Assembly (NCBI GenBank): GCA_965247095.1
Contig: OZ251997.1
Coordinates: 407,949 to 471,948 of the forward strand
Length of the DNA: 64,000 bases
Source of the DNA: Candidatus Multivorans sp.
Lineage (GTDB): Bacteria; Acidobacteriota; Thermoanaerobaculia; Multivoradales; Multivoraceae
Direction of reading: 5' to 3'
Program-made: the position numbers and the translations under genes
In this document: positions 3,664 to 56,604 of the stretch, in pieces
Layout: each line of letters opens with the position of its first letter
Numbering within the stretch: position 1 is the first letter of the stretch
The notes under the pieces: generated by a model
What the model saw: the letters and a program-made list of their open reading frames with translations, nothing else
Databases searched by the model: none
Told to the model about the DNA's origin: nothing

Positions 3664-4875
3664 CTAGCTTGCCCATTTCCTGGCTGCCGCCAGGGCCTCT
3701 TCCGACGGCGGCAGAGTGGGCTTGAGGCGCGCGGTCACGTTGAACGGTTCCGTGTCGATTTCGTCCAGGCCTTGTTCGCCGGCGAGGACTGCCTGCTTCC
3801 ATTCCTGCTGCGCATCTTCGCGCTCCTGGAACTCGGGCATCACTTCGCGCGCGAACAGCTCCAGGCTGCTCATGATGTCCTCGTGGGTGTTCTTGCCGGC
3901 TTGGTTGAGCAGGATAACCTGATCCACGTGGGCCCGCTCGAGCTCCAGCAGGCGCTCGCGGATTGTGGCCGGTGAGCCGATCAGTTCGCTGCCGGAGCGT
4001 CTGCGGCCTTCGGGCGTCTGCTTCCACTCCTGGTAGCGCTCCCAGAAGTTGTTCGACCTGGGCTCGAACGGGCCTTCCTTGTTGTAGAGCTGGAGGGCGA
4101 ACTGGAAGAACGTCCAGCCGTCGGCCTTCTGTTGCGCTTCCTCGTCGGTGGGCGCGCACATGAAGCCGCCAACCACGGCGAGGTTCGGGTTCGTCTGGTA
4201 GTCGCAGAGCTTCTGCTGATCGCCGACGAAGGTGTTGTAGTACGCGTTGACCCAGGCGCGGGCGGAGTCGAGGTCGACGAACTTGAAGCACAGCGCGCCC
4301 ATGCCGCGGTGGGCGGCGTAACGGATCGTTTCGAGCTGCGAGCAGGCGACCCAGAGCGGCGGGTGGGGCCGCTGCAGCGGCTTTGGAATCACGTTGCGCA
4401 GCGGGAAGTCGAAGTAGTGGCCGTGGTACTCCCAGCCCTCGTTCCAGAACATCGGCAGGCAGGCCTGGACCGCCTCCTCCCACACGATCCGCTTGTCGCG
4501 GAAACTGCGGCCGAAGGGGTGGAGTTCGGTGACGCTCGAGCCCTCGCCGAGCCCGAGTTCGACGCGGCCGTTCGACACCAGATCGAGGGTCGAGACGCGT
4601 TCCGCCACCCGCGCCGGGTGGTTCGTCGTCAACTGGACGATGCCGTGGCCGAGGCGGATGTTCTTGGTGCGCTGCGACGCCGCGGCCAGGAAGACCTCGG
4701 GCGCCGAACTGTGCGAGTACTCCTCCAGGAAGTGGTGCTCCACCTCCCAGGCGTAGTCGTAACCGAGCCGGTCCGCGAGTTCGATCTGCTCCAGCGAGTT
4801 ATGGAGCAGCCGGTGCTCCGAGTCCGCCTTCCACGGTTTCGGTAGCTGGTGCTCGTAGAAGATGCCGAATTTCAT
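3664..4875 (-). CDS. LLM-class (luciferase-like) flavin-dependent oxidoreductase/monooxygenase
   Basis: MKFGIFYEHQLPKPW...LGYDYAWEVEHHF...RLGHGIVQLTTNHP...LDLVSNGRVELGLGEGSS pattern typical of bacterial luciferase-like family; start moved to internal ATG (MKFGIF) at 4875. Confidence 0.75.
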   Translation of the reverse strand: MKFGIFYEHQLPKPWKADSEHRLLHNSLEQIELADRLGYDYAWEVEHHFLEEYSHSSAPEVFLAAASQRTKNIRLGHGIVQLTTNHPARVAERVSTLDLVSNGRVELGLGEGSSVTELHPFGRSFRDKRIVWEEAVQACLPMFWNEGWEYHGHYFDFPLRNVIPKPLQRPHPPLWVACSQLETIRYAAHRGMGALCFKFVDLDSARAWVNAYYNTFVGDQQKLCDYQTNPNLAVVGGFMCAPTDEEAQQKADGWTFFQFALQLYNKEGPFEPRSNNFWERYQEWKQTPEGRRRSGSELIGSPATIRERLLELERAHVDQVILLNQAGKNTHEDIMSSLELFAREVMPEFQEREDAQQEWKQAVLAGEQGLDEIDTEPFNVTARLKPTLPPSEEALAAARKWAS

Positions 4876-14293: not shown

Positions 14294-14413
14294 GGGAGTG
14301 AGAGTAGTGGCCAGTCGCTGGGGCCAACGGTCAGCACGGCGGAGGGACGGACAAAGGTGATCACGCCGTCGCTCCGCCGTGCGTTGCCCGTATCGGCGGG
14401 TCGGTCGGCCCGG

Positions 14414-14710
14414 CTACACGCAGATCGTCATGCTCCGGAAGGTCAGGTGCATCCCGACGGCGGTCAAGAAGGGGGAGCCAAGAGCCTGGCCGACGGCCGT
14501 AAGGAGCGCTCCGGCGACCGAGTCGGTCCTGCAACTGTGGCTCCGCGCTCCTCCAGCCACTCTCGTCAGGTCGGTGACCGTGAGCTGGTCGAGGCCATCG
14601 TGGCCGATGGTCGAGGTGCCGCCCGCCATCACGGCGTCAGGCGGTGTGGCGAAGGAAGCGCCGACGCTCAATACAAGGGCGATCGATGCAGTGGCTAGGA
14701 ATCTCGTCAT
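14414..14710 (-). CDS. Small secreted protein (98 aa), paralog of 16896-17198; two Cys, C-terminal ...CV
   Basis: ATG at 14710 with conserved GAAAGGA RBS; signal peptide MTRFLATASIALVLSVGASFATPP; aligns with the other small protein (LSVG[GA][AS]FA.PP...G.D.L[DE]QL...PFL.A...CV); embedded in the 441-aa Arg-rich ORF which is rejected. Confidence 0.55.
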   Translation of the reverse strand: MTRFLATASIALVLSVGASFATPPDAVMAGGTSTIGHDGLDQLTVTDLTRVAGGARSHSCRTDSVAGALLTAVGQALGSPFLTAVGMHLTFRSMTICV

Positions 14711-14913
14711 GTCCAGTGGTCCTTTCGGTTGTAGAGGGTTGGGGGTAGCCAGGTGGTGGAGGCCGCTGTCCGCGGCTCTCGAGCCACCTATGGACCAAGA
14801 CGGAATCGGCGCGGCTCCGTTCGTCTCGGTCACTTCGGTCCGAGCCGGCAGGGTCGTGTCCTTGCCTTGCTGTGAGCATGAGCCGCCCGACCGGAGGAGC
14901 CCGGGAAGCGGGC

Positions 14914-15603
14914 TCAGCCGCTGAGCATCTGCTCGCGGCGCTCCGCACGGGCGAAGGTCAGGGCGACGATGGCGGCGATGATGAGGGCAATGCCTATACG
15001 GTTCTGGACGGCCATGGTGAGCAACTGCTCGGCGTCGCCCCCTTTCACGGCGAGCGGGTTCCACAATGGCGAGATGCGCGGCTCGACCGAGAGGTATGCC
15101 ATTCGAAGGTTCGGGGCGAGTAGTGCCATGGTTGCCATTGCGCCGGTGACCTCGCTTCGGAAGAGGGTGGCGAAACCCATCGCTGCTACCAGGTAGAAAG
15201 CGGCTCCCTGCGCCGTGCCGTAGATGGTCTGAACAACTGGAAAGGAAGTGAAGAAAGCAAAGGTAAGCACCGCCGTCGGCGTCAGACTTGCAAACAGGAT
15301 CAGCCCTGCGGCAGCGAGTTTTCCGGTCCATACGCGACGGGTGCCGCCGGGTACGGTGTAGGCGATCTCCAGGGTGCGCTCGTCGAGTTCGCCGGCGATG
15401 ATCCGGCCGCCCAGGAAGACGGCGAGAACCGCGACCGGCGCACCAATCAGGGTGTTCTGTGCGTCGGCGGGCTCGAAGTTGGGCCGAAGCCCGGAGATGA
15501 GCAGTATCGCCTGAATTCCCAACCACGGCAGGGGCAGCAGCGGCAGCAGCCAGTAACGCGGGCCCCCGATCAGCACGGCGGAGAGACGGAGAACGGTGAT
15601 CAT
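14914..15603 (-). CDS. ABC-2 family transporter permease, paralog 3 of 3
   Basis: 229 aa, ~6 TM; ~60-70% identical to 15762-16451 and 17458-18150; ATG overlaps upstream relic stop (ATGA). Confidence 0.7.
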   Translation of the reverse strand: MITVLRLSAVLIGGPRYWLLPLLPLPWLGIQAILLISGLRPNFEPADAQNTLIGAPVAVLAVFLGGRIIAGELDERTLEIAYTVPGGTRRVWTGKLAAAGLILFASLTPTAVLTFAFFTSFPVVQTIYGTAQGAAFYLVAAMGFATLFRSEVTGAMATMALLAPNLRMAYLSVEPRISPLWNPLAVKGGDAEQLLTMAVQNRIGIALIIAAIVALTFARAERREQMLSG

Positions 15604-15700
15604 GCCGGAGCTCGGTCACCGGTCGCCTGGGCCGGCCAGAGGTAGCCGTCCCCGACCCGTCCGAGGCCATGGCTCTCGATGACCGGTGTAGTGCCCGCCA
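15601..15700 (-). pseudogene. Relic 3' end of an ABC ATPase gene (duplication scar)
   Basis: Minus-strand translation ...TPVIESHGLGRVGDGYLWPAQATGDRAPA* matches C-terminus of the RND-ABC fusion protein (...PVEPTLEDGYLWLAQAARGRAPT*) and keeps the same ATGA stop/start junction with the following permease. Confidence 0.6.
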
Positions 15701-15761
15701 CGACCGAGTTGGGCGGTACAGCGACAGAGGGGCAGACACTCAAGACAAGTGGCGACTCCTG

Positions 15762-16451
15762 CTAGCGGCTGAGCATCTTCTCGCGACGCTCCGCGCGAGC
15801 GAAGGTCAGGGCGACGATGGCGGCGATGGTGAGCGCGATGCCGATGCGGTTCTGGATGGTCATGGCGAGCAACTGCTCGGCGTCGGCTCCTTTCACGGCG
15901 AGCGGGTTCCAGAACGGCGAGATGCGCAGGTGCCCGCCGAAGCCGGTCACAGAGCCGTTCAAGCCGAATAGCGCAATCGTGACCAAGGCACCGCTCACCT
16001 CGCTGCGGAACAGCGTGGAGAAACCCATCGCCGCGGCTAGGTAGAAGCTGGCTCCTTGGCCAGCACCGTGGAGGGTCTGGACGACCGGAAACGCGGTGAA
16101 GAAGGCGAACGCCAGAACAGTCATCGGGATCAGGCTGCCAAGCAGGATCAGGCCTGCGGCGGTTAGTTTCCCCCACCAGACCCGATGGGCGCCGCCCGGG
16201 ACGGTGTAGGCGACTTCAAGGGTGCGCTCGTCGAGTTCGCCGGTGATGATCCGGCCGCCGAGAAACACAGCGAGGATCGCTACTGGCGCACCGATCAAGG
16301 TGTTCTGTGCAGCGGCGGGTTCGAAGCCGGGACGGCCGGTGAACAGCAACAGCACCGCCTGAAGGCCTAGCCAAGTCAGTGGCAGCAGAGGTAGCAGCCA
16401 GTATCTTGGCCCTCCGATCAGCACGGCGGAAAGACGGACAACGGTTCTCAT
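15762..16451 (-). CDS. ABC-2 family transporter permease, paralog 2 of 3
   Basis: 229 aa multi-TM, paralogous to neighbours; ATG start overlapping relic stop. Confidence 0.7.
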   Translation of the reverse strand: MRTVVRLSAVLIGGPRYWLLPLLPLTWLGLQAVLLLFTGRPGFEPAAAQNTLIGAPVAILAVFLGGRIITGELDERTLEVAYTVPGGAHRVWWGKLTAAGLILLGSLIPMTVLAFAFFTAFPVVQTLHGAGQGASFYLAAAMGFSTLFRSEVSGALVTIALFGLNGSVTGFGGHLRISPFWNPLAVKGADAEQLLAMTIQNRIGIALTIAAIVALTFARAERREKMLSR

Positions 16452-16500
16452 TGCAGCTCTCCCCCGCGGGTTGCTTGGCCCGACCGGAGGTAGGTGTCTC
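16449..16500 (-). pseudogene. Second relic ABC-ATPase 3' end (duplication scar)
   Basis: C-terminus of the 116-aa ORF 16448..16798 reads ...PPRDTYLRSGQATRGGELQ*, resembling ...EDGYLWLAQAARGRAPT*; same ATGA junction with permease start. Confidence 0.45.
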
Positions 16501-16895
16501 TAGGCGGCGCGACGCCTCCTTCGCCTTGCATGTAGAGGGTGGTGGGCGGAGGGACTGGGGTGCAGGTACTCCGGTTCAGCATGTCCCGTCGCGACGAGCG
16601 GCCATCCTGCCGACGATCCAGAGAGCTGGCAGCGAGAAGAGGGATGCGATGGCGACGAACAGGACCGGAGAACCGCCGACGAGGGCCAACAGCCGACCGC
16701 TCAACCAGCTTCGCCCGAAGGCGCTGCCCGGGGCAGGTCGCAGCGGCCGGTAGGGGCGGCTTTGTAGGTCCATGAACGTCGCCATCGAGTCCTTCCAAAC
16801 AGGAGCGTGATGCGCTATCCGCCCGCCTCTTTCCGGGGCCGAAGCCGGCACCCGCAATCAGAGAGTCTCATCGAGCGAGACGGCGCCGTTGTTGG

Positions 16896-17198
16896 CTAGA
16901 CACACACAGCGTCCGCGAGGAACGGACCGGCCAACCCGGCAGCGTGCATGAGCCCCCTGCCCGTGTAGATCCCTACGAAGACAAAGGCCTCGCCCGTCGT
17001 CTCAAAAGCAGCAGTGCAAGCTCCGGACCACCAAGCTGCTCCCATCACGCCGACCATCTCGGCATCCGCGAGTTGTTCGAGCCCGGGATTGTCGACGCCC
17101 GGATAGTCGCCCGCCACGGCCGTGACAGGCGGTTCTGCGAAGGCGCCGCCGACACTCAGTACAAACGCTGCCACTGCGATAGATAGAACTTTCTTCAT
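16896..17198 (-). CDS. Small secreted protein (~100 aa), paralog of 14414-14710; two Cys, C-terminal ...CV
   Basis: ATG 17198 (MKKVLSIAVAAFVLSVGGAFAEPP) with GAAAGGA RBS; upstream in-frame ATG at 17222 also possible; signal peptide; paralogous alignment with the other small protein. Confidence 0.55.
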   Translation of the reverse strand: MKKVLSIAVAAFVLSVGGAFAEPPVTAVAGDYPGVDNPGLEQLADAEMVGVMGAAWWSGACTAAFETTGEAFVFVGIYTGRGLMHAAGLAGPFLADAVCV

Positions 17199-17457
17199 GA
17201 TTCTTGTTCCTTTCCGTTTCATGGGTTCTTGTTGCCGTCGACCCCTTCGGAGAGGCCGACGACGCTGGTAGACGGGAAGGTCCTGCGGAAGCCGAGGAGG
17301 CTTCGCAGGTCCACCGCCGCGCAGCGCCTTACGGCGTGCAGGGACTGTGGACCGCCTATAGACCTATGACGGAATTCGGAGCGGCTTTTTCTGGCGAGGA
17401 CCCTGAGAGGGGGCTGGGTGGCAGTGGCTGCGTGTCAGGTCGAGGGCGGAACCCGGC

Positions 17458-18150
17458 TCAGCCGCCGAGCATCTTCTCGCGGCGTTCGGCGCGGGCGAAT
17501 GTCAGGGCGACGATGGCGGCGATCGCGAGGGCGATGCCGATCCGGTTCTGGACGCTCATCGCGAGCATCTGGTCGGCGTCGGCTCGGTCCACCGAGAGGG
17601 GGTTCCAGAACGGCGAGATGCGGAGGGGGTTTTCGCCGAAGCCGGTGATCAGGCCGTTGAGGCCAAGGAGGCCGGTCGTGGTCAGGGCGCCGGCCACCTC
17701 GCTGCGGAACAGGGTGGCGAGCCCCATGGCTGCAACCAGGTAGAAGGTGACGCCCTGGGCCGCGCCGTAGAGACTCTGGAAGACGGGGAAGGAGGTGAAG
17801 AAGGCGAACGTGACGGACGCCATCAAGGCCAGACTGGCGAGTAGCAACAGGCCGGCTGCGGCGAGCTTGCCGAGCCAGACGCGGTGAGCGCCGCCGGGTA
17901 CGGTGTAGGCGATCTCAAGAGAGCGCTGGTCGAGTTCGCCGGTGATGATCCGCCCGCCCAGGAACACGGCGAGAACGGCCACCGGCATTCCGATCAGTGT
18001 GTTCTGGGCGGCGTCACGTTCGAAGCCCGTCGCGGCGCCGGCCAACAGCAGGATCGCCTGCACGGCTAGCCACAGTAGCGGCAGCAGGGGCAGCAACCAG
18101 TAGCGCCGCCCTGCCAGCAGCACCGCGGACAGACGCAGCACGGCGATCAC
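17458..18150 (-). CDS. ABC-2 family transporter permease, paralog 1 of 3 (cognate of the fused ATPase upstream)
   Basis: 230 aa multi-TM; GTG start overlapping the stop of the RND-ABC fusion ORF (GTGA). Confidence 0.7.
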   Translation of the reverse strand: MIAVLRLSAVLLAGRRYWLLPLLPLLWLAVQAILLLAGAATGFERDAAQNTLIGMPVAVLAVFLGGRIITGELDQRSLEIAYTVPGGAHRVWLGKLAAAGLLLLASLALMASVTFAFFTSFPVFQSLYGAAQGVTFYLVAAMGLATLFRSEVAGALTTTGLLGLNGLITGFGENPLRISPFWNPLSVDRADADQMLAMSVQNRIGIALAIAAIVALTFARAERREKMLGG

Positions 18151-21100
18151 GTCGGGGCTCTGCCGCGCGCCGCCTGCGCCAGCCAGAGGTAGCCGTCCTC
18201 GAGCGTGGGTTCGACTGGTTCGGCCCGCCGATCGGGGCGGTCGGCAGCCAGCACGCGCAGGCGGCTGCTGCCGTCGGGTTCCGGTTGGCGATCGGCGAGC
18301 ACGGACGCCTCGGGAAGCTCCGGCTCCTCATCTCCGGGCGCCGTCCATGACCAGACACGGCCTTCGGCCTCTCGGGACAGCGCCGCCGGCTCGCCGTCGA
18401 ACACCATGCGGCCGCCGGTGAGCACCAGTACGCGCTCGCAGGCCACCGCCACGTCCTCGACGACGTGGGTCGAGAAGAGGACGATGCGGTCCTTGGCCAG
18501 GCGCGAGAGCAGGTTGCGGAAGCGGACGCGCTCGCGTGGGTCGAGGCCGACGGTCGGCTCGTCGACGACGATGATCGGCGGCAGGCGCAACAGCGTGCGG
18601 GCCACCGCGACCCGCTGCCGCATGCCGCCGGAGTAGCCGCCGATCGGTTCGTCCGCTCGCTCGTCGAGTCCGACTTCGCGCAGCAGGGAGCCGATGCGCT
18701 CCGCTCGCTCCGACGCCTCGATCTGGTAGAGCGCGGCGTAGTACTCGAGGTACTGCCGGGCCGTCAGGCGCGCCGGCAGGCCGGCGTCCTGCGGCAGGTA
18801 GCCGACGTAGCGGGCCAGCCGTTTCCGTATCCTGAGCAGGGGCACGCCGCCCAGCGTGATCCGGCCGCGGGTCGAATCCAGAATGCCGGTCACCTGGCGG
18901 AGCAGGGTCGTCTTGCCCGCGCCGTTCGGACCCAGCACGCCGACCATGCCCCGCTCGACATCGAAGCTCACCGCGGCCAGCGCCTTCACCGTGTCGATCG
19001 GCAGATCGAGACCGAAGATCCGGGTTGCTGCCGCCCGCCAGAGGCGGATCAACATGCCGCGCCAGCCACGGGTGCGCCGGCGGCGGGTTGACCGCTGCTC
19101 CCGGCGCACCGTCTCGAGACGGGCCGTGCGACGTCCGAGTTGGATCAGAAGGATGATCGTGGAGAGGATGGCCACGACGATGAACCCGCCCACCGCGGGC
19201 TCGGTGGCGAGAGCCGGACCGACCAGGCCCGCGAGAAGCGCCCAGGGCAGCAGGGCGGACAGAACGCCCTCGATGCCGCCCGGCTCGACTCGACCAAGCG
19301 CGTCGGCGCGGCCGCGGGCACGCCGGACCTCGGTCAGCAGCCGGGAAGCGATCAGCAGTGCGGCAATCCAGGCGCCCAGTTGGATCAGGTCGGCACGGAA
19401 CCTCATGGCCAGGGCGACCGCGCCGGCGAGCAACAGGAGCAAGGGCAGGATGCGGTCCCGCGCGTCGGCGGGGTGGAAGGCCTGACCGCCGCGGTCGACG
19501 ACCTGCTTGGCGAAGTCGGTCGATGCCCGCAGCGCCCGGCGCACCGGCCCCGGCCGGCCGTAGGTCTTGCGCAGGTGACGGACCACCAGCCGGGGCGGTC
19601 CGGCGTCGGCCTCCGGTTCCGGTGTCGGCGGTTTTGGCACCAGCCACACGGTGAGCCCGAGCAGGGCGCCGGCGATGAGCACGGTCGTCGTGACCTGCCA
19701 GAACATGGACTCGATCACGCCGAGAACGAACAACGGGGCGGTGGCCGCGATCACCGCGCCGAGCCAGGTCAGAACCACCCAGGGTCCGACGCGGCTGAAG
19801 ACATCGTCCAGGCGCCGCAGAAAGACGTAGCCGACCGGGATGACGAGCAGCGTGAGCACGGTCGAGGTCAGAAGACCGCCGATCACCAGGGTCGCGAAGG
19901 GCGGCCAGAGCTCGTTCTCGCGTCCCGTGGCGATGGCCAGCGGTGCGAGCGCCGCGATCGTCGTCGCGCTGGTCATCAACACCGGACGCGCGCGCTCGCG
20001 AACCGCGGCCAGGGCGGCGGCGCCCGCACTCCAGCCGGCGCCGAGTACCCGTTGCTGCATCCGGTCGACGAGCAGAACCGCCGGGTTCACCGCCAGCCCG
20101 AGGAGGACGAGCGCCCCGAGCAGCGCCATCGGATCGAGCCCGATGCCGGAGAACATCAGCGCCCACAGCGAGCCGAGCAGGGCGAGCGGCAGCGCGAGCA
20201 GAACAAGGATCGGCAGGGTCATCGACTCGAACGCCACCGCCAGAACCAGGAACACGAGCATCACGACCGGCGCCAGGACGCGCCGGAACCAGCTCGTGTT
20301 CTCGTCCGAGCGGTCGAGCTCGATTGTCGTTCCGGGCGGACGGTGGATGCTGGCAAGCGCCTCGTCCAGGTTGCGGTCGAATTCCAGCCGCGCCGGTCCG
20401 CCGCTTGGTACGTCGGACGAGACGCTGTAGATGACCTCCCGCTCGCGGCGGCCGTTGTGGTGTGTGATCACCGGGGAAGCCGGCGCGCGGCGCACCTGCG
20501 CCAAGGCGGCTACTGGCAGGACGCCAGCGCTCGTGGAGACGCGGAGCCGGGACAGGCCGCTCAGCGACGCCTCGCGCTCGAAACTGCTGCCGTCCACGAC
20601 CCGGGCGTCACTGGGTCGGTTCTCCGCGCGCTGGACGACGATCGGAAGCTCACGGCCGTTCGGAAGCGGGAAGCCGCTGTTGATGCTCGTACCCTCACGG
20701 CCGGCGAGACTCAGCATCGGCAGCACATCGTCGAGCAGGACGCCGAAGGTGTCGAAGGCGCGACGGTTCGGGCTGACGTGGATCTCGTCGGGGCCGGGCC
20801 GTGAGGCTAGAAAGGCGCCGCTGATCCCCTCGATCTCCTTGAGCCGCTCGGCGACCTCCGTGGCCAGACCGGTCAACTGGTCGTTGTCGTTTCCGGACAG
20901 GATGACCCGTTTCGGCCCTGCCCCGAGCAACTCCTGGGCGCCGCCGCCACCGCCGGGACCGCCGCCCCGACCGCCCGGGCCTTCGCCTTCGCCGGGTCGC
21001 AGAATCTCGGTACCGGCGCGCCGGTTCGCGGCCCGGCGTACGAGCTGACGGATCCGCGCCGCGGTCAGTTCCTCGGGGCGGTCCTCGAGTGCCTCGAGGT

Positions 21101-33632: not shown

Positions 33633-34628
33633 TCATAGGTTGTAAGCGTGCCGAATCGCCGCCGCCGCCAGCAGACGCGCCGGATCAAACAACGGCCGTC
33701 CCGCCGCCTCCGCTCCGCCCAGGGCCAGCGGAATCTCCGTACAACCCGCCACCAGCACATCGACGCCGGCGTCCCCGACCAGCCTCCCGGCCGCCTCCTC
33801 CAGCAGCACCCGTGCCCGCGGCGACCCGCCGTCCGTCTTGATCCCGCCGCCTCGATGCCGTCCATTGACCCAGGGCCCGTAGATCGCCTCCATGACCGCG
33901 CGGAGCTGCAGCGCTTCGCCGTCCTCCAGGTCGAGCGGGCTCACCGCCCGAAGGCCACGGGCCTCCAGCGGATCGTGGTAGAGCCGCGAGCGCAGCGTGC
34001 CGGACGTGGCGAGCAGGCCCACCCGCCCGCCAGGCGCGATGCGCTCCGCCTCGTCGGCCGTGACCTCGACCAGGCTGAGGATCGGCAGCGGGCTCTCCTC
34101 GCGCAGTGGCGCCATCCGTGCGCCCGATGACGGGCGCACGGACTGGTTCGCGGGTGACGCGGGACCGCGCCACCCGGGTGTCATCCATGCGCCCGATGAC
34201 GGGCCCATGGACTGGTTCGCGGCTGGCGCGGTCCCGCGCCACCCGGGTGTCATCCATGCGCCCGATGACGGGCCCATGGACTGGTTCGCGGCTGGCGCGG
34301 TCCCGCGCCACCCGGGTTCCAGGAACAGGTGCGCTGTATTGCAGGCGACCACGGCGAAGTCCGCTCCGGCCCGTCGCACCCGTTCCAGGCTCCGAAGCAG
34401 CACCGGGCTCGGGTCCTCCGCGTGGCCCAGGAAGGCTTCGGTCCGGTCGGGGGTCTGCGGAATGCTGGACAGCACCCATTCCGGGAAGTCCTGATCCGCC
34501 GTGGCGCCAGTCAACTCACGCGCCGCCTCCAGCAGCTTCCGCTCGAAGTCGAGATGGGCGAAGGGTCCGAGGCCCCCGACGATCCCTATCAGACGCTGCT
34601 GCCGCATGCGTTGAGTGGTCCTCGGCAT
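33633..34628 (-). CDS. Asp/Glu/hydantoin racemase-family protein carrying an in-frame 3x tandem repeat insertion
   Basis: LIGIVGGLGPFAH... and ...VDVLVAGCTEIPL racemase motifs with the two catalytic Cys regions; central 71-aa insert PGWRGTAPAANQSMGPSSGAWMT x3. Confidence 0.65.
   Translation of the reverse strand: MPRTTQRMRQQRLIGIVGGLGPFAHLDFERKLLEAARELTGATADQDFPEWVLSSIPQTPDRTEAFLGHAEDPSPVLLRSLERVRRAGADFAVVACNTAHLFLEPGWRGTAPAANQSMGPSSGAWMTPGWRGTAPAANQSMGPSSGAWMTPGWRGPASPANQSVRPSSGARMAPLREESPLPILSLVEVTADEAERIAPGGRVGLLATSGTLRSRLYHDPLEARGLRAVSPLDLEDGEALQLRAVMEAIYGPWVNGRHRGGGIKTDGGSPRARVLLEEAAGRLVGDAGVDVLVAGCTEIPLALGGAEAAGRPLFDPARLLAAAAIRHAYNL
34114..34328. repeat. Three tandem 69-bp copies of a palindromic repeat element (family A), in-frame within racemase gene
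   Basis: Units start at 34114, 34183, 34252 (CATCC[AG]TGCGCCCGATGACGGGC..TGGACTGGTTCGCGG.TGGCGCGG[GA/TC]CCGCGCCACCCGGGT); central hairpin TGGCGCGG..CCGCGCCA with loop flipped between copies. Confidence 0.8.
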
Positions 34629-38491: not shown

Positions 38492-41400
38492 ATGGCCCGC
38501 GGCTCGATCCTCGTTTCCTGTTCGGCGGCCCGACGGCTGGCGGCGGCCGCCGGGTGGCTGCGCAAACGCCGGCACGGCGAGGAGGAGACGCTGCTGCTTG
38601 CGGCCTCGCGCGGCGCCGCCGACGACCTGGTCCGGGGCATGTCGGAGACAGGCCGGGGGATGCTGGGCGTTCATCGCGCGTCGCTCGACCAGTGGGCGTT
38701 GCAGACCGCGGCGCTTGAGTTGGCCGCCCGTGGACTGCGGCCGGTCACGCCGCTCGGAACCGAGGCGATGGCGGCGCGGGTCGCCCGCCTTGCCGCGGCG
38801 CAAGGAGAACTGGAGCGTTTGGAGCCGGTTGCCGACCTTCCCGGTTTCGCCCGCTCCCTGGCGGGGACGATCGGTGAGCTGCGCGCGGCAGGCGTTTCGC
38901 CCGGCGACCTGCTGAAGGACCACGGAACGCGCGACCTGGGCCGGCTGGTTCACCGATTCGACGAGGAGATGACCCGTTTCGGGTTGGCGGATCCGGCGAC
39001 CGTGCTTCGCTCCGCCGTCGTGGCAGTGGACCGGGAGCAGGTCGCTGTTCCCAAGGGATCGCTGTGGCTCGATCTGCCGCTTCGAAGCGCTAGCCAGGTC
39101 GCACTCTTGCGGGCGCTCGCCGCGCGCAGCCGGGACGTGCTCGCGACCGTGGCCGCGGGCGACCACGAGACGCTGGAGTGGCTGGGGTCGCTGCTCGGCG
39201 ACGGGGCGGTGATCGATCTCGACCGGGAGGAAGCGGTCGACGCCGGGACTGCGGGCGGTCGTCGGCTGGCTCGGGTCCAGCGCTTCGTCTTTGAGACCGG
39301 AGCGGATGCGTCTTCGCCGCTTGACGGTACGCCAGGTGCGGGCGAGACGCCCGCGTTCCATCCGCGCGCCCGCGGACGGGCGCGCGGAGTGGTTCCCGGG
39401 TGGCGCGGGACCGCGCCACCCGGGTTCCCAGGCAGTGGAGCAGACGTGCCGGCCGGCTCTTCGGTCGACCTGTTCTCGGCGGCCGGCGAGGGCCAGGAGT
39501 GCGTCGAAATCGCCCGGCGCATCCAGCGCGCCGCCGCCGGGGGGCTTGCCTTCGATCGCATGGCGATCTTGCTTCGCCAGCCGGCCGCCTACCTGCCCCT
39601 GGTGGAGGACGCGCTCGGCCGCGCCGGCATCCCCGCCTACGTCACCCGGGGCACGTTGCGCCCCAATCCGGCCGGCCGCGCCTTCCTTGCCCTGCTGGCC
39701 TGCGCGGGGGAGAGACTCTCGGCAAGCCGCTTCGCCGAGTACCTGTCCCTCGGTCAGACCCCCGAACCGGCGAAGGGCGGCAGACCGCCAAAGCGCGAGG
39801 TGCCCTGGGTCGAGCCGGCGGGCGATCAACTCGTCATCAAGTCGCCGGAGCTCTCTCGAGCGCGGGCGTCTCGCCCGCATTCTGCGACCGACGGCGCCGC
39901 GGCCACCGACGCTCGCGAAACCCAGGAAGAGGCAGCGCCCGCCGGCGCGCTGCGCGTCCCCTCCCAGTGGGAGCGCTTGCTGGTCGACGCCGCCGTGGTC
40001 GGCGGCGCCGAACGCTGGCAGAAGCGGCTCGCGGGCCTTGGCGCGGAGTTCCGGCTGCAACTGCGCGAGGCCGGGGACGAGGACGAAGGCCGCAGGGCTT
40101 ACCTGGAGCGGCAGATCCGGCGCCTGGAGACGCTCCAGACGTTCGCGCTGCCCCTGATCGAGTTTCTCGACGCCCTGCCCGAGCACGCGGACTGGGGCTG
40201 GTGGCTCGAGCGTCTGCAGGAGCTGGCGACGATGGCGCTGCGCCGGCCGGAGACCGTGCTCGAGGTGCTTGCCGAGCTCCGACCGCTGGCGCAGGTCGAC
40301 GAGGTGGGCTTGGCCGAGGTGGAGCGGATTCTGGGCGAGCGCCTGCGCTTCAGCCGCAGCCGGCCGCCGAAGCGGCGGTTCGGCCGGGTCTTTGTCGGTG
40401 GCGTCGAGGAGGCGGCGGGACGGAGCTTCGAGGTCGTGTTCGTGCCGGGTCTGGCCGAGGGCGTGTTTCCGCGGCGGGCGAAGGAGGATCCGCTGCTGCT
40501 CGACGAACGTCGCCGGACGCTGCGAGAGGCGGGCTACCGGTTGACCGAGGATCTGGGGCGCACCCGGCGGGAGCAACTGCTGCTTCGCCTCGCCATCGGC
40601 GCCGCGAGTCGCTGGCTGGTCGTGTCGTATCCCCGGGTCGACCTGGTGCAGGGGCGCGCCCGGGTGCCGTCGCTGTACGCGCTCGATGTGCTGCGGGGCG
40701 CCGAGGGGCGCCTGCCGGACCTCGACGCGCTCGGCCGGCGTGCCGCGGCCGCCGGCGCCGCGGTGGTCGGCTGGCCGGCGCCGGCCGAACCCGAGGACGC
40801 GGTCGACGAGGCCGAGTTCGATCTCGCCCTGCTGCGGCCGCTCCTGGTCCCGGGCGCCCCGGTCGCGGAGCGCAGAGGACGGGCGCGCTTCCTCCTCGAG
40901 TCGAACCCGCACCTCAAGCGTGCCCTGGAGGCGCGCGGCCGGCGCTGGCGGCGACCCTGGTTCCCGGTCGACGGCCTCGTGGACGCGAGCGCCGAAGCCA
41001 GGGAAACGCTGGCCGCCCAGCGCATCGGCGCGCGCTCCTACTCGCCGACCGCGCTCCAGAACTTCGCCGCCTGCCCCTACCGCTTCTTCCTCCAGGCGGT
41101 GCTCTACCTCAGGCCCCGCGAGGAGCTGGTCCAGCTCGAGCAGATGGACCCGATGACCCGGGGCAGCATCTTCCACGAGATCCAGTTCCGCCTGTTCGGC
41201 GCCTTGGAGGCGGCGGACCTGCTGCCGGTGGCGCCGAGTTGCCTGGCGAGGGTCTTCGAACTGCTCGACGAGGTGCTCGCGCGGAGCGAACGCGACTACC
41301 GGGAGGAACTCGCGCCGCCGATCGAGCGCGTCTGGAGGGCGGAGTTCGAGGGCCTGCGGGCCGACCTGCGCGGCTGGTTGCGGCAGGTGGCGGACGAGGG

Positions 41401-41953
41401 CGGCCAGTGGAAGCCCATTCACGCCGAACTCTCCTTCGGTCTCAGGCGGTCCGGGGACCGGGATCCGCGCAGCAAGCGGGCGCCGGCGGAGGTGCTCGAC
41501 GGGGCGCTGCTGCGCGGCTCGATCGACCTCGTCGAGGAGGACGCGGGCGGTCGGCTGCGGGTGACCGACCACAAGACCGGTCGCGCCGTTCACGCCGGCG
41601 GGGGCCTGGTGATCGGCGGCGGCAAGGTGCTGCAGCCGGTGCTCTACAGCCTGGCCGCGGAGCACGTGCTCGAGCGGGACGTGGTCTCGGGGCGGCTCTT
41701 CTACTGCACCCAGCGGGGTGGCTACAGCACGGTCGCCGTGCCGCTCGACGAGCGGAGCCGCGGCGCCGCCCGCCGGCTGCTGGACGCGGTGGACGGGGCG
41801 CTGGAGGACGGTTTCCTGCCCGCGGCGCCGGCGAAGGACGAGTGCCGGTACTGCGACTACCGGCGGGTGTGCGGCCCCTACGAAGAGTTGCGGGTCCAGC
41901 GCAAGGACGCGACGCGGCTCCACGATCTGCAGGCGATTCGGAGCGAGCGGTGA
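38492..41953 (+). CDS. addB: AddB-like helicase-nuclease complex subunit B (PD-(D/E)XK nuclease with Fe-S cysteine cluster)
   Basis: C-terminal RecB-type nuclease motif IDLVEEDAGGRLRVTDHKTG and Cys cluster (FAACPYRF ... ECRYCDYRRVC); ATG 38492 after upstream stop; GTGA overlap with downstream UvrD-type subunit; contains in-frame repeat copy at 39359-39432. Confidence 0.7.
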   Translation: MARGSILVSCSAARRLAAAAGWLRKRRHGEEETLLLAASRGAADDLVRGMSETGRGMLGVHRASLDQWALQTAALELAARGLRPVTPLGTEAMAARVARLAAAQGELERLEPVADLPGFARSLAGTIGELRAAGVSPGDLLKDHGTRDLGRLVHRFDEEMTRFGLADPATVLRSAVVAVDREQVAVPKGSLWLDLPLRSASQVALLRALAARSRDVLATVAAGDHETLEWLGSLLGDGAVIDLDREEAVDAGTAGGRRLARVQRFVFETGADASSPLDGTPGAGETPAFHPRARGRARGVVPGWRGTAPPGFPGSGADVPAGSSVDLFSAAGEGQECVEIARRIQRAAAGGLAFDRMAILLRQPAAYLPLVEDALGRAGIPAYVTRGTLRPNPAGRAFLALLACAGERLSASRFAEYLSLGQTPEPAKGGRPPKREVPWVEPAGDQLVIKSPELSRARASRPHSATDGAAATDARETQEEAAPAGALRVPSQWERLLVDAAVVGGAERWQKRLAGLGAEFRLQLREAGDEDEGRRAYLERQIRRLETLQTFALPLIEFLDALPEHADWGWWLERLQELATMALRRPETVLEVLAELRPLAQVDEVGLAEVERILGERLRFSRSRPPKRRFGRVFVGGVEEAAGRSFEVVFVPGLAEGVFPRRAKEDPLLLDERRRTLREAGYRLTEDLGRTRREQLLLRLAIGAASRWLVVSYPRVDLVQGRARVPSLYALDVLRGAEGRLPDLDALGRRAAAAGAAVVGWPAPAEPEDAVDEAEFDLALLRPLLVPGAPVAERRGRARFLLESNPHLKRALEARGRRWRRPWFPVDGLVDASAEARETLAAQRIGARSYSPTALQNFAACPYRFFLQAVLYLRPREELVQLEQMDPMTRGSIFHEIQFRLFGALEAADLLPVAPSCLARVFELLDEVLARSERDYREELAPPIERVWRAEFEGLRADLRGWLRQVADEGGQWKPIHAELSFGLRRSGDRDPRSKRAPAEVLDGALLRGSIDLVEEDAGGRLRVTDHKTGRAVHAGGGLVIGGGKVLQPVLYSLAAEHVLERDVVSGRLFYCTQRGGYSTVAVPLDERSRGAARRLLDAVDGALEDGFLPAAPAKDECRYCDYRRVCGPYEELRVQRKDATRLHDLQAIRSER
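39359..39432. repeat. Family A palindromic repeat copy, in-frame inside addB
   Basis: CATCCGCGCGCCCGCGGACGGGCGCGCGGAGTGGTTCCCGGGTGGCGCGGGACCGCGCCACCCGGGTTCCCAGG; encodes ...HPRARGRARGVVPGWRGTAPPGFPG. Confidence 0.75.
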
Positions 41954-49094: not shown

Positions 49095-49145
49095 GCGGCC
49101 TGCTGTTCAGGTTCCTGGGAACGCGGGCATCCTGCCCGCATCCGG
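49095..49145. repeat. Hairpin repeat element (family B: GGGAACGCGGGCATC[CT]TGCCCGCATC) upstream of hisS
   Basis: TTCCTGGGAACGCGGGCATCCTGCCCGCATCCGGG; same element occurs twice at 56497-56592. Confidence 0.6.
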
Positions 49146-54499: not shown

Positions 54500-55683
54500 G
54501 CGCCGTGGGCGCTGAGACCGCCGGACGTTTCGACGACGCCGATCGGCGGGCGATGGGGCGGGCCCTGGCGCTGGCGCGGCGGGGCCGCCTGACCACGGCG
54601 CCGAACCCCATGGTGGGCGCGGTGGTCACGAAGAGCGGCGAGATCGTCGGCGCCGGCTGGCACCGTCGGGCCGGCGGCGAGCACGCGGAGGCGATGGCGC
54701 TCGACGCCGCCGGTGGCCGCGCCCGTGGCGGCACGATCTACGTCACGCTCGAGCCGTGCACCCATCACGGCCGGACCCCGCCCTGCGCGGGACGGATCCT
54801 GGAATCGGGGGTTGAGCGCGTGGTCTTCGCCCACCGCGATCCGAACCCCGAGGTGATCGGCGGCGGTGGCGAACGGCTGCGGGCCGCGGGCCTCCGGGTC
54901 GAGAGCGGGCTCCTGGCCGAGCAGGCGGTCGAGATGAATGTGCCCTTCCTGACCCGCGTCCTTCACGAGCGGCCCGCCGTGACCCTGAAGTGGGCGATGA
55001 GCCTGGACGGCCGCATCGCGACGGCGACCGGCGACAGCCAGTGGATCTCGTCGCCGCGCGGCCGCCGTTGGGCGCTCGAACTGCGCGAGGAGCACCAGGC
55101 GATCGTGGTCGGCAGCGGCACCGCGCTGGCCGACGATCCGCGTCTCGACCGGCGACTGGGCCGGGCCGAGGGACCGATCGTGCGGGTGGTGCTCGATCGG
55201 CGGTTGCGGCTATCCCCGGGGGCGCGGATGTTCGAGGTCGAGGGGCCGGTTGTCGTCTACACGGCGGCGCCGGAGGGCGGCGCGAACGAGGGCGCGGACG
55301 AGGGCGCGGTGGAATGGGCCCGGCGGCGAGACCGTCTACGTGATGCGGGCGCCGATGTCGTCGTGATCGAGGCCGTGGCGCCGCCCGCGGTGCTGGCGGA
55401 CCTGGCCGGGCGCGGCGTGTCGAACGTGCTCGTCGAGGGCGGTGCCGGGGTGCTGGAGGCGTTTGCGTCCTCGGGTGTCTGGGATCGGGCCGCGGTGTGC
55501 TGCGCGCCCCTCCTGATCGGCGGCGCGGCGGCCCTGGGCCCGATCGGCGGCGCCGGCGCGGAGAAGTTGGCTGACGCCTGGCGCCTCGATCGGCTGCGGG
55601 TTCTAAGGCGTGGCGCGGACGTGATTCTTGTAGGGTACCGGCAGGGATGTATACCGGAATTGTCACGGAGTGTGGCCGGGTAG
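54496..55683 (+). CDS. ribD: Bifunctional diaminohydroxyphosphoribosylaminopyrimidine deaminase / 5-amino-6-(5-phosphoribosylamino)uracil reductase
   Basis: CMP/dCMP deaminase zinc motif HAEAMAL...LEPCTHHGRTPPCA, then reductase domain; GTG overlapping ftsY stop (alternative ATG 54553). Confidence 0.85.
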   Translation: MSAVGAETAGRFDDADRRAMGRALALARRGRLTTAPNPMVGAVVTKSGEIVGAGWHRRAGGEHAEAMALDAAGGRARGGTIYVTLEPCTHHGRTPPCAGRILESGVERVVFAHRDPNPEVIGGGGERLRAAGLRVESGLLAEQAVEMNVPFLTRVLHERPAVTLKWAMSLDGRIATATGDSQWISSPRGRRWALELREEHQAIVVGSGTALADDPRLDRRLGRAEGPIVRVVLDRRLRLSPGARMFEVEGPVVVYTAAPEGGANEGADEGAVEWARRRDRLRDAGADVVVIEAVAPPAVLADLAGRGVSNVLVEGGAGVLEAFASSGVWDRAAVCCAPLLIGGAAALGPIGGAGAEKLADAWRLDRLRVLRRGADVILVGYRQGCIPELSRSVAG

Positions 55684-56396
55684 TCGAGGCCCCCAAAGCC
55701 CCCAAAGCCCCGACGCGCCACGGTGCCATCCGACCGCCCGAAGACGGGCGCTCGGACTGGGTCGCGTGTGGCGCGAGCACGCGCCCCACGGGTTCCCGCA
55801 TGGTGATCGGGCACTCGGCGGAGCTTGCGTCGCGGCTGGAGCCGGGCGCCAGCCTCTCGGTCGCCGGGGTCTGCCTGACCGTGGTGGAGCAGGGCGGCGC
55901 GAACGGAGTGTCGGGTAACGGCGCAGAGGGCGCCATCCCGGCCTGGTCCGCCTTCGATCTGTCTCCCGAAACGCTCAGCCGCACGACTCTTGGCGCTCTG
56001 GTTGACGGCGATGAGGTGAACCTGGAGCCGCCGCTTTCTGCCGGCGACCCCCTTGGCGGCCACTGGGTCCAGGGCCACGTCGACACGACGACCCGGGTGG
56101 CGAAAGTCGAGGAACTCGGAGACAACCGGGTCATCACGTTCGAAGTCCCCGCCGAGCTCGAGAACGGCCTCGTCCTCAAGGGCAGCGTGACGATCGACGG
56201 CGTCAGCCTGACGATCGCGGCGCTGGACGAAGAAACCTTCGACGTCGCCCTGATTCCGCACACGCTCGAGGTCACCACCCTCTCGGAGCTGAAGCCCGGC
56301 GACCCGGTCAACGTCGAGGGCGACGTCCTCGCCCGGTACGTCCAGAAGTCCGTCGAGGCGGCCGTCGCCGCCGCCCTCGAGTCGGCCCGGCGTTGA
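55647..56396 (+). CDS. ribE: Riboflavin synthase alpha subunit with N-terminal repeat-derived insertion
   Basis: MYTGIV...VAGVCLTV...GDEVNLE...GGHWVQGHVD...DGVSLTIA...IPHTLEVTTL two-lumazine-binding-repeat architecture; ~25-35 extra residues (APKAPKAPTRHGAIRPPEDGRSDWVACGASTRPTGS) versus canonical RibE. Confidence 0.8.
   Translation: MYTGIVTECGRVVEAPKAPKAPTRHGAIRPPEDGRSDWVACGASTRPTGSRMVIGHSAELASRLEPGASLSVAGVCLTVVEQGGANGVSGNGAEGAIPAWSAFDLSPETLSRTTLGALVDGDEVNLEPPLSAGDPLGGHWVQGHVDTTTRVAKVEELGDNRVITFEVPAELENGLVLKGSVTIDGVSLTIAALDEETFDVALIPHTLEVTTLSELKPGDPVNVEGDVLARYVQKSVEAAVAAALESARR
55737..55812. repeat. Family A palindromic repeat copy, in-frame inside ribE 5' region
   Basis: CATCCGACCGCCCGAAGACGGGCGCTCGGACTGGGTCGCGTGTGGCGCGAGCACGCGCCCCACGGGTTCCCGCATGG; preceded by tandem CCCCCAAAG x2. 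Confidence 0.7.
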
Positions 56397-56426: not shown

Positions 56427-56592
56427 CCTGGGAGCCCGGGTGGCGCCCCGCGCCACCCGTGAACCACTCCGTGCGCCCGTCTTCGGGCGCGCGGATGGCA
56501 CGCGGGCATCTTGCCGGCATCTGCGTGAGGGCCGTCCGCGACATGAGCCGTCCGTCCTGGGAACGCGGGCATCTTGCCCGCATCTGGGTCAG
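56427..56592. repeat. Composite intergenic repeat: inverted family A copy followed by two family B hairpin copies
   Basis: CCTGGGAGCCCGGGTGGCGCCCCGCGCCACCCGTGAACCACTCCGTGCGCCCGTCTTCGGGCGCGCGGATGG (56427-56498), then ACGCGGGCATCTTGCCGGCATCTG and GGGAACGCGGGCATCTTGCCCGCATCTGG. Confidence 0.7.
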
Positions 56593-56604
56593 GATCGTCG
56601 CCCC

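Follow-up and report, generated by a model that had tools for sequence, protein, structure and literature searches.

The stretch of DNA analyzed here, 64,000 nucleotides of contig OZ251997.1 from a Candidatus Multivorans genome (hereafter the window), has a GC content of 69% and carries a short palindromic repeat both between genes and, in frame, inside three genes. The repeat unit, which we call the core, is a 69-base DNA (5'-KCCATCC...CCCGGGT-3') that folds as two hairpins. A pattern with 25 specified bases from its conserved left half matches six sites in the window against 0.00 expected (100 shuffles), in agreement with the original prediction of at least six copies in 64 kb. Three of these sites are the units of a tandem array, and the others are found at 39360+, 55728+, and 56464-. 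A tRNA scan of the window found none.

The array lies within a gene of the Asp/Glu racemase family on the minus strand (33633..34607; ORF 33633..34628), whose Pfam Asp_Glu_race match falls into two separated stretches. Tandem Repeats Finder places it at 34113-34317, with a period of 69, 3.0 copies, 94% matches, no indels, and a score of 361. All three units are 69 nt long and on the plus strand. Unit 1 (34111..34179; GCCATCC...CCCGGGT) abuts the left flank and has a consensus-like first hairpin (H2) and a GA loop in the second hairpin (H3). Units 2 (34180..34248) and 3 (34249..34317) are identical to each other and have a rare TC loop, as in the single copies of two related loci, L107 and L108; unit 3 is followed by TCCAGG, a half-site of the insertion target described below. 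Unit 1 is 90% identical to both (7 of 69 positions differ). Read antisense, the array adds 3 x 23 amino acids (aa) to the protein (PGWRG..ANQS..PSSGA.M). The three exact head-to-tail units of 69 bp had been predicted correctly, but the added length is 69 aa and not 71 aa.

A single 69-nt copy (39357..39425, +) is found in a variable linker of a gene for an AddB-like PD-(D/E)XK nuclease (38492..41953, +), which reads it in the sense +0 frame (HPRARGRARGVVPGWRGTAPPG). It is preceded by another hairpin module, H1 (GGTGCGGGCGAGACGCCCGCGT; 39335..39356, +), also in frame in addB, and the tail of this H1, T^TCCCAGG, is the site that the core entered (the caret marks the insertion point throughout). 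The third host gene is ribE, encoding a riboflavin synthase with two Lum_binding domains (55647..56396, +). Here a 69-nt copy with degenerate hairpins (55725..55793, +) is inserted between residues 24 and 48, in the N-terminal barrel, and is read in the sense +1 frame (GAIRPPEDGRSDWVACGASTRPT). The three host genes of the window represent three different readings of the core. Both single in-frame copies had been recognized in the original prediction, although the coordinates proposed for ribE, 55737-55812, lie some 12-19 nt too far to the right. Just 5' of the core, ribE also contains a 9-bp tandem repeat (GCCCCCAAA x2.6, APKAPKAP; window 55689-55711) that is shorter in P0123.

The last match is an inverted intergenic copy of 66 nt with a short H3 loop (56434..56499, -), located in the tail of an H1 downstream of ribE (56500..56521, +; H1 pattern match 56497-56521). 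The orthologous H1 is empty in the related locus L111, which has two empty H1 downstream of ribE where the window has one filled and one empty. The latter, a solo H1 at 56560..56584 (+), and another solo H1 upstream of hisS (49118..49142, +; also an H1 pattern match) both have an unoccupied landing site. Among the inverted or related intergenic copies that had been proposed, only 56434-56499 is the same element; 49118-49142, 56497-56521, and 56560-56584 are the hairpin H1. H1, too, is polymorphic: compared to window positions 56497-56599, a stretch of 63 bp, corresponding to one H1 with its spacer, is missing in the close relative L012.

The core can be written 5'-(G/T)CCATCCGTGCGCCCG-nnGA-CGGGCGCACGGACTGG-TTCG-CGGGTGGCGCG-loop-CGCGCCACCCGGGT-3' (68-69 nt), where nnGA is ATGA in the consensus form. 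Its two hairpins, H2 (15 bp, one bulge) and H3 (11 bp), are GC-rich and mutually unrelated. We aligned 135 copies, 134 of them distinct, that come from related genomes and from the window, and found standard pairs in 95.6% of 3,448 pair cells. Changes on both sides were observed at 12 of 26 pairs and involve 81 cells, against 10.6 in shuffles, and none of 500 shuffles reached 81. When partner columns were slid by 1-3 as a control, pairing fell to 22-44%. As single-stranded DNA (ssDNA), the consensus folds at -38.5 kcal/mol (z = -8.4). Among the window copies, the hairpins are best kept in addB (-42.3 kcal/mol, z -8.2); array unit 1 folds at -31.6 kcal/mol (z -5.9), while array unit 2 (-24.5) and the ribE copy (-28.5) are weaker than the consensus. 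The palindromic folding predicted for the units is thus borne out by two hairpins with compensatory changes and strongly negative ssDNA folds. Mean column identity of the core across genera is 86%.

The H2 loop is nnGA, while the H3 loop is free in sequence and in length (2-4 nt), which explains why the core exists in 68-, 69-, and 70-nt forms. H3 loops keep one polarity: GAT, GGT, GGAT, and similar loops are common, and their reverse complements are absent from the 134 distinct copies. The difference between the GA loop of unit 1 and the TC loop of units 2 and 3 is real, but since the loop is hypervariable and has a single polarity, a flip-flop between copies, as suggested originally, is ruled out and GA/TC is a local variant.

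The palindromes of the core are internal, not terminal. Terminal inverted repeats are absent, as the first 14 nt match the reverse complement of the last 14 nt at 6 positions, as expected by chance at this base composition. GTAG occurs in 1 of the 134 distinct copies, as does CTAC, and the sole CGTC is the antisense of the H2 loop and not a hairpin foot. No Rfam family exceeded the gathering or E-value thresholds for the core or the window, the weak miRNA/sRNA matches being hairpin noise.

To determine how far the core extends beyond the window, its pattern was scanned against 185,579 species genomes, giving at least 106 loci, which confirms that the element is repeated elsewhere. Among the matches listed, all come from Acidobacteriota metagenome-assembled genomes (MAGs), about 22 in number, mostly 'Candidatus Multivorans' and other Thermoanaerobaculia, while a few bear the labels Holophagales, Vicinamibacteraceae, or 'Acidobacteria bacterium'. 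Among the genomes matched, OZ250177.1 is the closest, with 97% identity over ribD-ribE including both local copies (BLAST). With nhmmer, we found 145 copies in the 106 loci and the window (about 0.9 Mb of sampled DNA). The density, roughly inferred and excluding the copies that seeded the loci, is in the range of 1 per 15-25 kb, that is, of the order of 10^2 per genome. Presence or absence of the core is polymorphic between genomes at a synonymous divergence (dS) of 0.1 or less. As judged from these genome sequences, the core has spread within the Acidobacteriota class Thermoanaerobaculia ('Ca. Multivorans' and relatives). No core copies were found in IMG/VR viral contigs, which thus give no evidence for a phage vector. 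At the protein level, concatenated six-frame consensus peptides gave 1 protein at E <=0.01 among 520 candidates, and 23-aa matches were below significance in 5.8 billion sequences; the 69-aa peptide of the array, compared with 1.84 billion representatives, had 9 weak matches of low identity, and the cluster representatives lack the insert. One of the sampled loci, L061, also contains a group II intron D1-D4 match (RF02003, 99.5 bits; 4646-4787, -) about 2.5 kb from its core copy, with no apparent link between the two.

Comparison with orthologues showed that the peptides encoded by the core are additions and not native segments of the host proteins, as originally predicted: exactly 23 aa per unit are missing from over 100 orthologues of the racemase and from close orthologues of AddB and RibE. 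In the racemase, the insert site lies between HLFLE and (A/R)(P/L)LREES, eight residues past the catalytic Cys of ACNTAH, and the more than 100 orthologues, of 255 aa, read ...ACNTAHLFL^ERLREES... ungapped. One 23-aa unit is present at this site in P0002 (278 aa) and P0004 (281 aa), where the window protein has three. In the DNA, the empty allele of L110 is ...CACCTGTTCC^TGGAGCG, where L107 and L108 are longer by exactly 69 nt. In AddB, the close relative L107 has the in-frame H1 only (GGATGCGGGCGAGACGCCCGCGT followed by TGCCAGG), the window has 69 additional nt in the H1 tail, and the more distant L110 has neither H1 nor core in this variable linker.

RibE orthologues that are 87-92% identical to the window protein are 223 aa long and lack exactly GAIRPPEDGRSDWVACGASTRPT (23 aa), and in the alignment with solved structures (207-213 aa) there is a gap at residues 14-61. 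In L111, the empty site reads CACGGT^TCCCGC. The ribE site is also filled in a lineage that is only 77% identical (P0128 and P0129), while it is empty in the intermediates at 87-92%; either it is a hot spot, or there was one old gain with several losses. RibE has a second, hypervariable Gly/Ala-rich insertion (alignment columns 84-155, window ~55895-55940), which is unrelated to the hairpin element; with it, lengths among Thermoanaerobaculia orthologues vary between 211, 223, and 243-266 aa.

A similarity that is native or artefactual, due to convergent low-complexity GC-rich coding sequence or, for the array, to an assembly error, is highly improbable. The three-copy array is known from one assembly, and one database racemase, P0006, looks chimeric at the insertion point, so that repeats can apparently confuse metagenome assemblies. 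However, the chance expectation for the 25-base pattern is zero, and the same 69-nt sequence is present between genes as well as, in different frames, inside unrelated ones. Independent assemblies of other samples have one copy at the racemase site (L107, ERZ25072076; L108, ERZ21829562), and ribE with its insert is common to OZ250177.1 at the 97% identity given above. P0006 itself (262 aa, from a 15.5-kb ENA contig) has no insert; it matches the window protein at 100% identity as far as the insertion point and at about 80% beyond it. It may stem from recombination or from chimeric assembly, with the site of the core as the breakpoint.

We then defined the ends of the core from filled and empty sites. 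The sole placement that fits all four orthologous filled/empty pairs without extra substitutions is KCC...GGGT at (C/T)^TCC. Other placements, for example after CCA with a TCCA duplication, fit the racemase but fail at ribE, at the downstream H1, and at the loop of a second hairpin repeat; what looks like a TCCA repeat in the racemase is the start of the core itself, which resembles the target half-site. According to the four orthologous pairs and about 60 paralogous hairpin sites, insertion is site- and orientation-specific: it is one-oriented, uses the short target (G/C)T^TC(C/T), and generates no target duplication. In the flanks of 119 copies, T precedes the core (position -3) in 106, and TC follows GGGT in approximately 97-99.

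The best targets are the tail of H1 (...GCCCGCGT^TCCCAGG) and the loop of the second hairpin (GCGCCGGCCT^TCTGGCCGGC), and the same motif is also used inside genes. H1, a separate hairpin of the repetitive extragenic palindromic (REP) type (GGAACGCGGGCATCnTGCCCGCATC, with the landing tail GGATGCGGGCAGGATGCCCGCGT^TCCCAGG), is the main landing pad. Among 54 copies of the H1 tail in the sampled loci (L001-L112), about 24 are empty and continue with TCCCAGG, and 22 are filled and continue with GCCATCCG or TCCATCCG. The loop of the second hairpin (CTGGGTGCGCCGGCCT^TCTGGCCGGCATCC) is empty in 10 cases, holds one core in 24, and holds three cores in one (L024 1951-2190). This second REP-like hairpin, which can also be written CTGGGTGCGCCGGCCT^TCTGGCCGGCATCCGG, is found at L014 926, L038 5840, L047 7134, L093 2296, L110 10876, and other positions. 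An H1 is also present at the junction between an ABC ATPase gene and the next gene in L107 (13480-13720), two genes that overlap by 4 bp in relatives. There, the overlap region is duplicated over about 40 bp on the flanks of H1, and both reading frames are apparently kept.

Exact head-to-tail arrays are not restricted to the racemase. They also occur in L003, L005, L024 (x3), L068, and L077, and their units abut (GGGT directly followed by KnCATCC). Because the core starts with (T/G)CC and ends with GGGT, both of its junctions resemble the target, which probably explains why exact arrays recur: each insertion would recreate target-like junctions on both sides, and a second insertion could take place beside the first and build an array with a 69-bp period.

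Some copies are embedded in larger repeats. A composite of about 300 bp surrounds the core at L014 2750-3050, L026, L033 4190-4480, and L061 1940-2240 (about 10 loci, four of them in OZ250177.1). Its upstream part, GCACCCGCC..GGGGTCAGCTCCCAGG, is complementary to the downstream CCTGGGAGCTGACCCC..GGGCTGG with compensatory differences between copies, it has no Rfam match, and it could be a larger structured element or a MITE (miniature inverted-repeat transposable element) with long arms. Another repeated context, in L010, L034, L035, and L057, consists of GCCCGTGGCA.GAGTCGCGCTGCATTCGA...CATGCATCCCGCCCGGCATCGT, the core, and then ...CAAGCTCCTCGGTCGCCC, and comes mostly from one genome (CATOTG01).

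To understand how the racemase array arose, we compared filled and empty alleles. The window, L107, and L109 group together at a dS of 0.09-0.14, L108 is at about 0.45, and L110 at about 0.7. The one-copy alleles L107 and L108 differ at 2 of the 69 nt of the unit, while the dS of the surrounding gene is about 0.45-0.48. As both have the same rare TC loop and the same stem variant (CGGCTGG...CCAGCCG), their units probably go back to one old insertion, common to the window. The old unit would then have been duplicated recently, giving the identical units 2 and 3, and unit 1 may represent a further insertion or a conversion at the left junction, a reading suggested by its consensus H2, its different loop, and its position. 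The element is missing from L109, which groups as a sister with the filled alleles (dS 0.09-0.10). The L109 junction, TGGC-GCCA-GGAAC, retains the lineage-specific flank and the first bases of the core, and the protein has AP instead of ER. This may correspond to a near-precise loss of the core through CCA microhomology. The order of these events (old insertion, duplication, new unit 1, loss in L109) is inferred from the alleles.

It is also possible, though on balance doubtful, that this and the other arrays result purely from replication slippage or unequal recombination of a resident copy, with no re-insertion. The complete identity of units 2 and 3 is what a recent duplication would leave, they have the rare TC loop of the L107 and L108 single copies, and the loss through CCA microhomology in L109 indicates that slippage-type events happen at this locus. 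Against slippage alone, unit 1 shows 7 differences in 69 positions, together with a consensus-type H2 and another H3 loop, and it sits exactly on the left junction, the place expected for a new insertion. Moreover, arrays are found at five other unrelated loci with units that always abut exactly, and in some of them the units differ markedly (L024 unit 1 compared to units 2 and 3).

For the distribution of the core between genes and intergenic DNA we used a gene finder based on codon log-odds, with the window as its training set; it replaced a GC3-based coding classifier (150-nt flanks) that failed on known genes. Out of 145 copies, 106 are intergenic (about 73%), 23 touch the edge of a gene, and 16 lie within one, in DNA that is 85% coding (p = 6e-88). 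According to Pfam, the in-gene hosts in relatives are an Lhr helicase (the same insertion in two genomes), Amidase_3 (AmiC-type), ABC_tran, Pyr_redox_2 (GltD-like), and APH. In the window (racemase, AddB, and RibE) as well as in relatives (Lhr, the amidase, the ABC ATPase, and the GltD-like gene), the core is in frame in intact genes and missing from their orthologues.

Intergenic copies are most commonly 68 nt long (class 63, n = 49, against n = 28 for the 69-nt class 64), while in-gene copies have the 69-nt form, a multiple of three (3n). The bias is significant whether one ambiguous case is counted against it (8 vs 1, Fisher p = 0.0017) or not (7 vs 0, p = 0.0008). This difference between the commonest intergenic form and the unambiguous in-gene insertions indicates that selection filters for frame, as the original prediction had proposed. 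Four of the six frames of the core are open in 95-100% of copies, compared to about 73% in shuffles, and in one frame the H2 loop supplies a stop codon, TGA. The same antisense frame is used in 5 of 9 independent in-gene events (binomial p = 0.009), and its peptide, EPGWRGxAPxANQSxRPSSGARM, is rich in Gly, Pro, Ser, and Ala. Since host genes read the core in at least four combinations of frame and orientation, its conservation is that of a nucleotide sequence and not of a protein module. Taken together, translation filters the in-gene copies, which have the 3n form and stop-free frames, lie in linkers or tolerant sites, and form disordered loops.

At gene termini, the stop codon of five predicted genes is the TGA of the H2 loop (ends in L030, L077, L079, L080, and L084), and in five genes the predicted ATG lies in the antisense end of the core (GGATGG; starts in L001, L011, L036, L066, and L102). 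The core may remodel gene ends there, or these may be gene-calling artefacts.

The racemase shows what an insert may do to its host. Both catalytic Cys motifs are kept in the window protein, and the ratio of nonsynonymous to synonymous divergence is 0.15-0.23 in every pair, with or without insert, as under purifying selection. In an AlphaFold2 model (68 sequences), 221 residues have a pLDDT of at least 90, while residues 108-171 are unstructured (pLDDT 32-38); the predicted disordered stretch splits the helix after Cys96 into H100-103 and H175-178. Judged by these sequences and this model, the gene looks alive and putatively functional despite the insert.

The inserts might also be removed before translation, as a small intron or by another RNA-level excision, leaving the proteins unaffected and imposing no constraint on frame. 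The core is strongly structured when single-stranded, and breaking the helix after the catalytic cysteine seems costly if the insert is translated. However, the 3n form and the stop-free frames of in-gene copies are expected only if ribosomes read through them, and no Rfam ribozyme or intron family was matched. In addition, we know of no bacterial splicing system that acts on 69-nt hairpin inserts. Excision at the RNA level is therefore scarcely credible.

The position of the intergenic copies relative to genes raises another possibility, namely that the core is a REP-type motif serving the host as a terminator, an mRNA-stabilizing hairpin, or a protein-binding site, and that copies in genes are by-products or adaptive modules. 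Divergent promoter regions are depleted of copies (11) and convergent regions enriched (29; chi-square p = 0.046). In tandem gene regions, copies are co-oriented with transcription in 51 cases against 28 (p = 0.013), and intergenic copies lie at a median of 53 nt past the upstream gene. The compensatory changes that maintain the hairpins, the 86% column identity across genera, and the 2 differences in 69 nt between one-copy racemase alleles despite the dS of the gene also agree with a host-serving motif. On the contrary, conservation concerns the nucleotides and not the peptide, which is read in at least four ways, and the core is present or absent at a dS of 0.1 or less. It nests in other repeats and forms tandem arrays, neither of which a terminator role needs, and no U-tract follows its hairpins. 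We consider it unlikely that host service is what the core primarily represents, while a secondary host function of intergenic copies alongside mobility is possible.

Our results suggest instead that the core is, in all likelihood, a small non-autonomous mobile DNA element whose copies are filtered by selection. Independently of this assignment, which says nothing of the enzyme involved, its transposition may use a single-stranded intermediate and an HUH/Y1 enzyme acting in trans, of the kind of the IS200/IS605 TnpA or of the REP-associated tyrosine transposases (RAYT). A duplex circle of 69 bp is physically implausible, and a single-stranded circle is the sole plausible intermediate for 69 nt. 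For this reason, and because the anatomy of the core resembles IS200/IS605 ends and REPs, we favor this route tentatively, as a serious possibility somewhat short of a probable one. The features that fit the HUH family are subterminal hairpins, the absence of inverted repeats and of duplication, a fixed short target, and near-precise loss. Such an enzyme would cut and join the single-stranded core.

Several observations weigh against a mobile element or against its proposed enzyme. No transposase came to light when about 1 Mb of related DNA was scanned by regex for HUH/Y1 signatures. Stem mismatches have no clear strand bias (33 G.T vs 57 A.C), and the orientation of the core relative to local GC skew is 50:50, a test that has no power because local skew did not track gene orientation either. 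The flanks are conserved on both sides, where an IS608-type reaction predicts the left flank only, and this conservation may partly stem from amplified composites of hairpin and core and not from independent insertions. The loss in L109 is not an exact reversal, and ordinary slippage through the CCA microhomology could account for it, as slippage could for the identity of units 2 and 3. The three-copy array rests on one assembly, an identical database protein of 331 aa being probably the same record. The coding and intergenic census depends on our own gene calls from codon usage, one in-gene copy (L056) appears to have the 68-nt form, and the restriction to Acidobacteriota holds only among the matches listed. 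Pfam analysis of the genes between core copies found ordinary metabolism. In a search for an autonomous copy, solo left or right halves proved to be subfamilies with a divergent H3, a copy with a 40-nt internal insertion (L003), or truncated copies.

To place the core among known systems, we compared it with four kinds of repeats. Rickettsia palindromic elements (RPE), reportedly treated by Ogata et al. in 2000, resemble it in lying in frame inside intact genes, in encoding an extra peptide predicted to be compatible with the protein surface, and in having no known transposase. RPE are small palindromic repeats found in intergenic DNA and, remarkably often, in frame in unrelated housekeeping genes (PMC10969869, PMC3733652). 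They differ in their host, an AT-rich obligate intracellular alphaproteobacterium, whereas the core is found in free-living Acidobacteriota with 69% GC. RPE measure about 100-150 bp, against 68-69 nt with two different hairpins for the core, and nearly half of the copies of some RPE families are in genes, against about 11% of core copies. The defined short target, the nesting in other hairpin repeats, and the exact tandem arrays also set the core apart. The proposed likeness to Rickettsia elements therefore stands for behavior, that is, frame-preserving insertion into genes, but not as a claim of kinship. Regarding the other label proposed, the core is short, non-coding, multi-copy, and polymorphic between genomes, as MITEs are, but, having neither terminal inverted repeats nor target-site duplication, it does not qualify as a MITE sensu stricto.

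The core shares with the REP/REPIN-RAYT systems imperfect palindromes that are rich in GC, a high copy number, and a location mostly downstream of genes, within tandem and convergent regions (PMC3733652, PMC3116915, PMC6006769). It also shares mosaic clusters with other hairpins, the lack of terminal inverted repeats and target duplication, and occasional in-frame copies, including in recB-type nuclease genes; REPs inside genes, recB among them, were known earlier (Di Nocera et al., PMC3733652). In contrast to REPs, it has no GTAG or CGTC foot tag, which puts it outside the canonical definition, it combines two unrelated hairpins in a fixed order and not an inverted REP doublet, and a regex scan found no RAYT gene in about 1 Mb of related DNA.

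The ends of IS200/IS605 elements and PATE-type derivatives, moved by 'peel and paste' Y1 HUH enzymes (PMC6006769), are similar in their subterminal hairpins without inverted repeats or duplication, apparently in their one-oriented insertion beside a fixed short sequence, and in near-precise loss. The insertion point of the core is, however, conserved on both sides, its hairpins start 2-5 nt from the ends, and no such transposase was found in about 1 Mb. The core is likened to them by anatomy. Finally, class 3 TnpA-Y1 genes are found in Acidobacteria, flanked by atypical hairpins, with up to about 600 copies per genome (Solibacter usitatus; PMC6006769). These 'REPtron-like' systems of Planctomycetes and Acidobacteria share with the core its phylum, atypical non-GTAG hairpins, and high copy number, but the described CnGA foot cannot be convincingly mapped on H2 or H3, and no class 3 gene was found in about 1 Mb. 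As a lead from the literature, class 3 TnpA-Y1 would be the most plausible candidate class for the mobilizing enzyme. In sum, the core is best filed as a new small mobile palindromic repeat of the REP/RPE kind.

Apart from the core, the window contains three paralogous genes of about 230 aa on the minus strand (14914-15603, 15762-16424, and 17458-18150), which make up repeat families D1-D5 (window 14310-18202) with spacings of 848 and 1699 bp.

That palindromic repeats can colonize genes in frame is usually presented as a curiosity of Rickettsia. The core gives the same outcome in soil and sediment bacteria, a free-living lineage that is unrelated to Rickettsia and high in GC. In the literature searched, such colonization is undescribed in this phylum and GC range, and no paper describing repeats in this lineage was found. 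The evidence is cleaner than usual, with empty, one-copy, and three-copy alleles within a dS of about 0.1, a defined site, and a measurable 3n signature. This makes the core a tractable system for the choice of targets by hairpin transposons and for the tolerance of proteins to random 23-aa loops, even beside an active-site helix. In practice, Thermoanaerobaculia MAGs will show the effects of the core as split Pfam domains, inflated protein lengths, and chimeric contigs, and the presence or absence of the core and the length of its arrays are ready-made strain markers.

A more far-reaching scenario, which we regard as speculative and rather unlikely to hold in full, is that the core is the non-autonomous partner of a single-strand system, HUH-type or other, that is specific to Thermoanaerobaculia, recognizes a GT^TCC site regenerated by the core itself, and so combines homing, arrays, excision, and the seeding of loops. 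In that case, the regeneration of a site of 4-5 nt on both sides would underlie homing into REP-like hairpins, exact arrays, and near-precise excision. Disordered loops of 23 aa seeded in the racemase, RibE, AddB, Lhr, and AmiC would be a steady source of protein length variation within a GC-rich phylum of free-living bacteria, and 'RPE-like' colonization of proteins would be a general outcome of the biology of hairpin transposons and not a peculiarity of Rickettsia.

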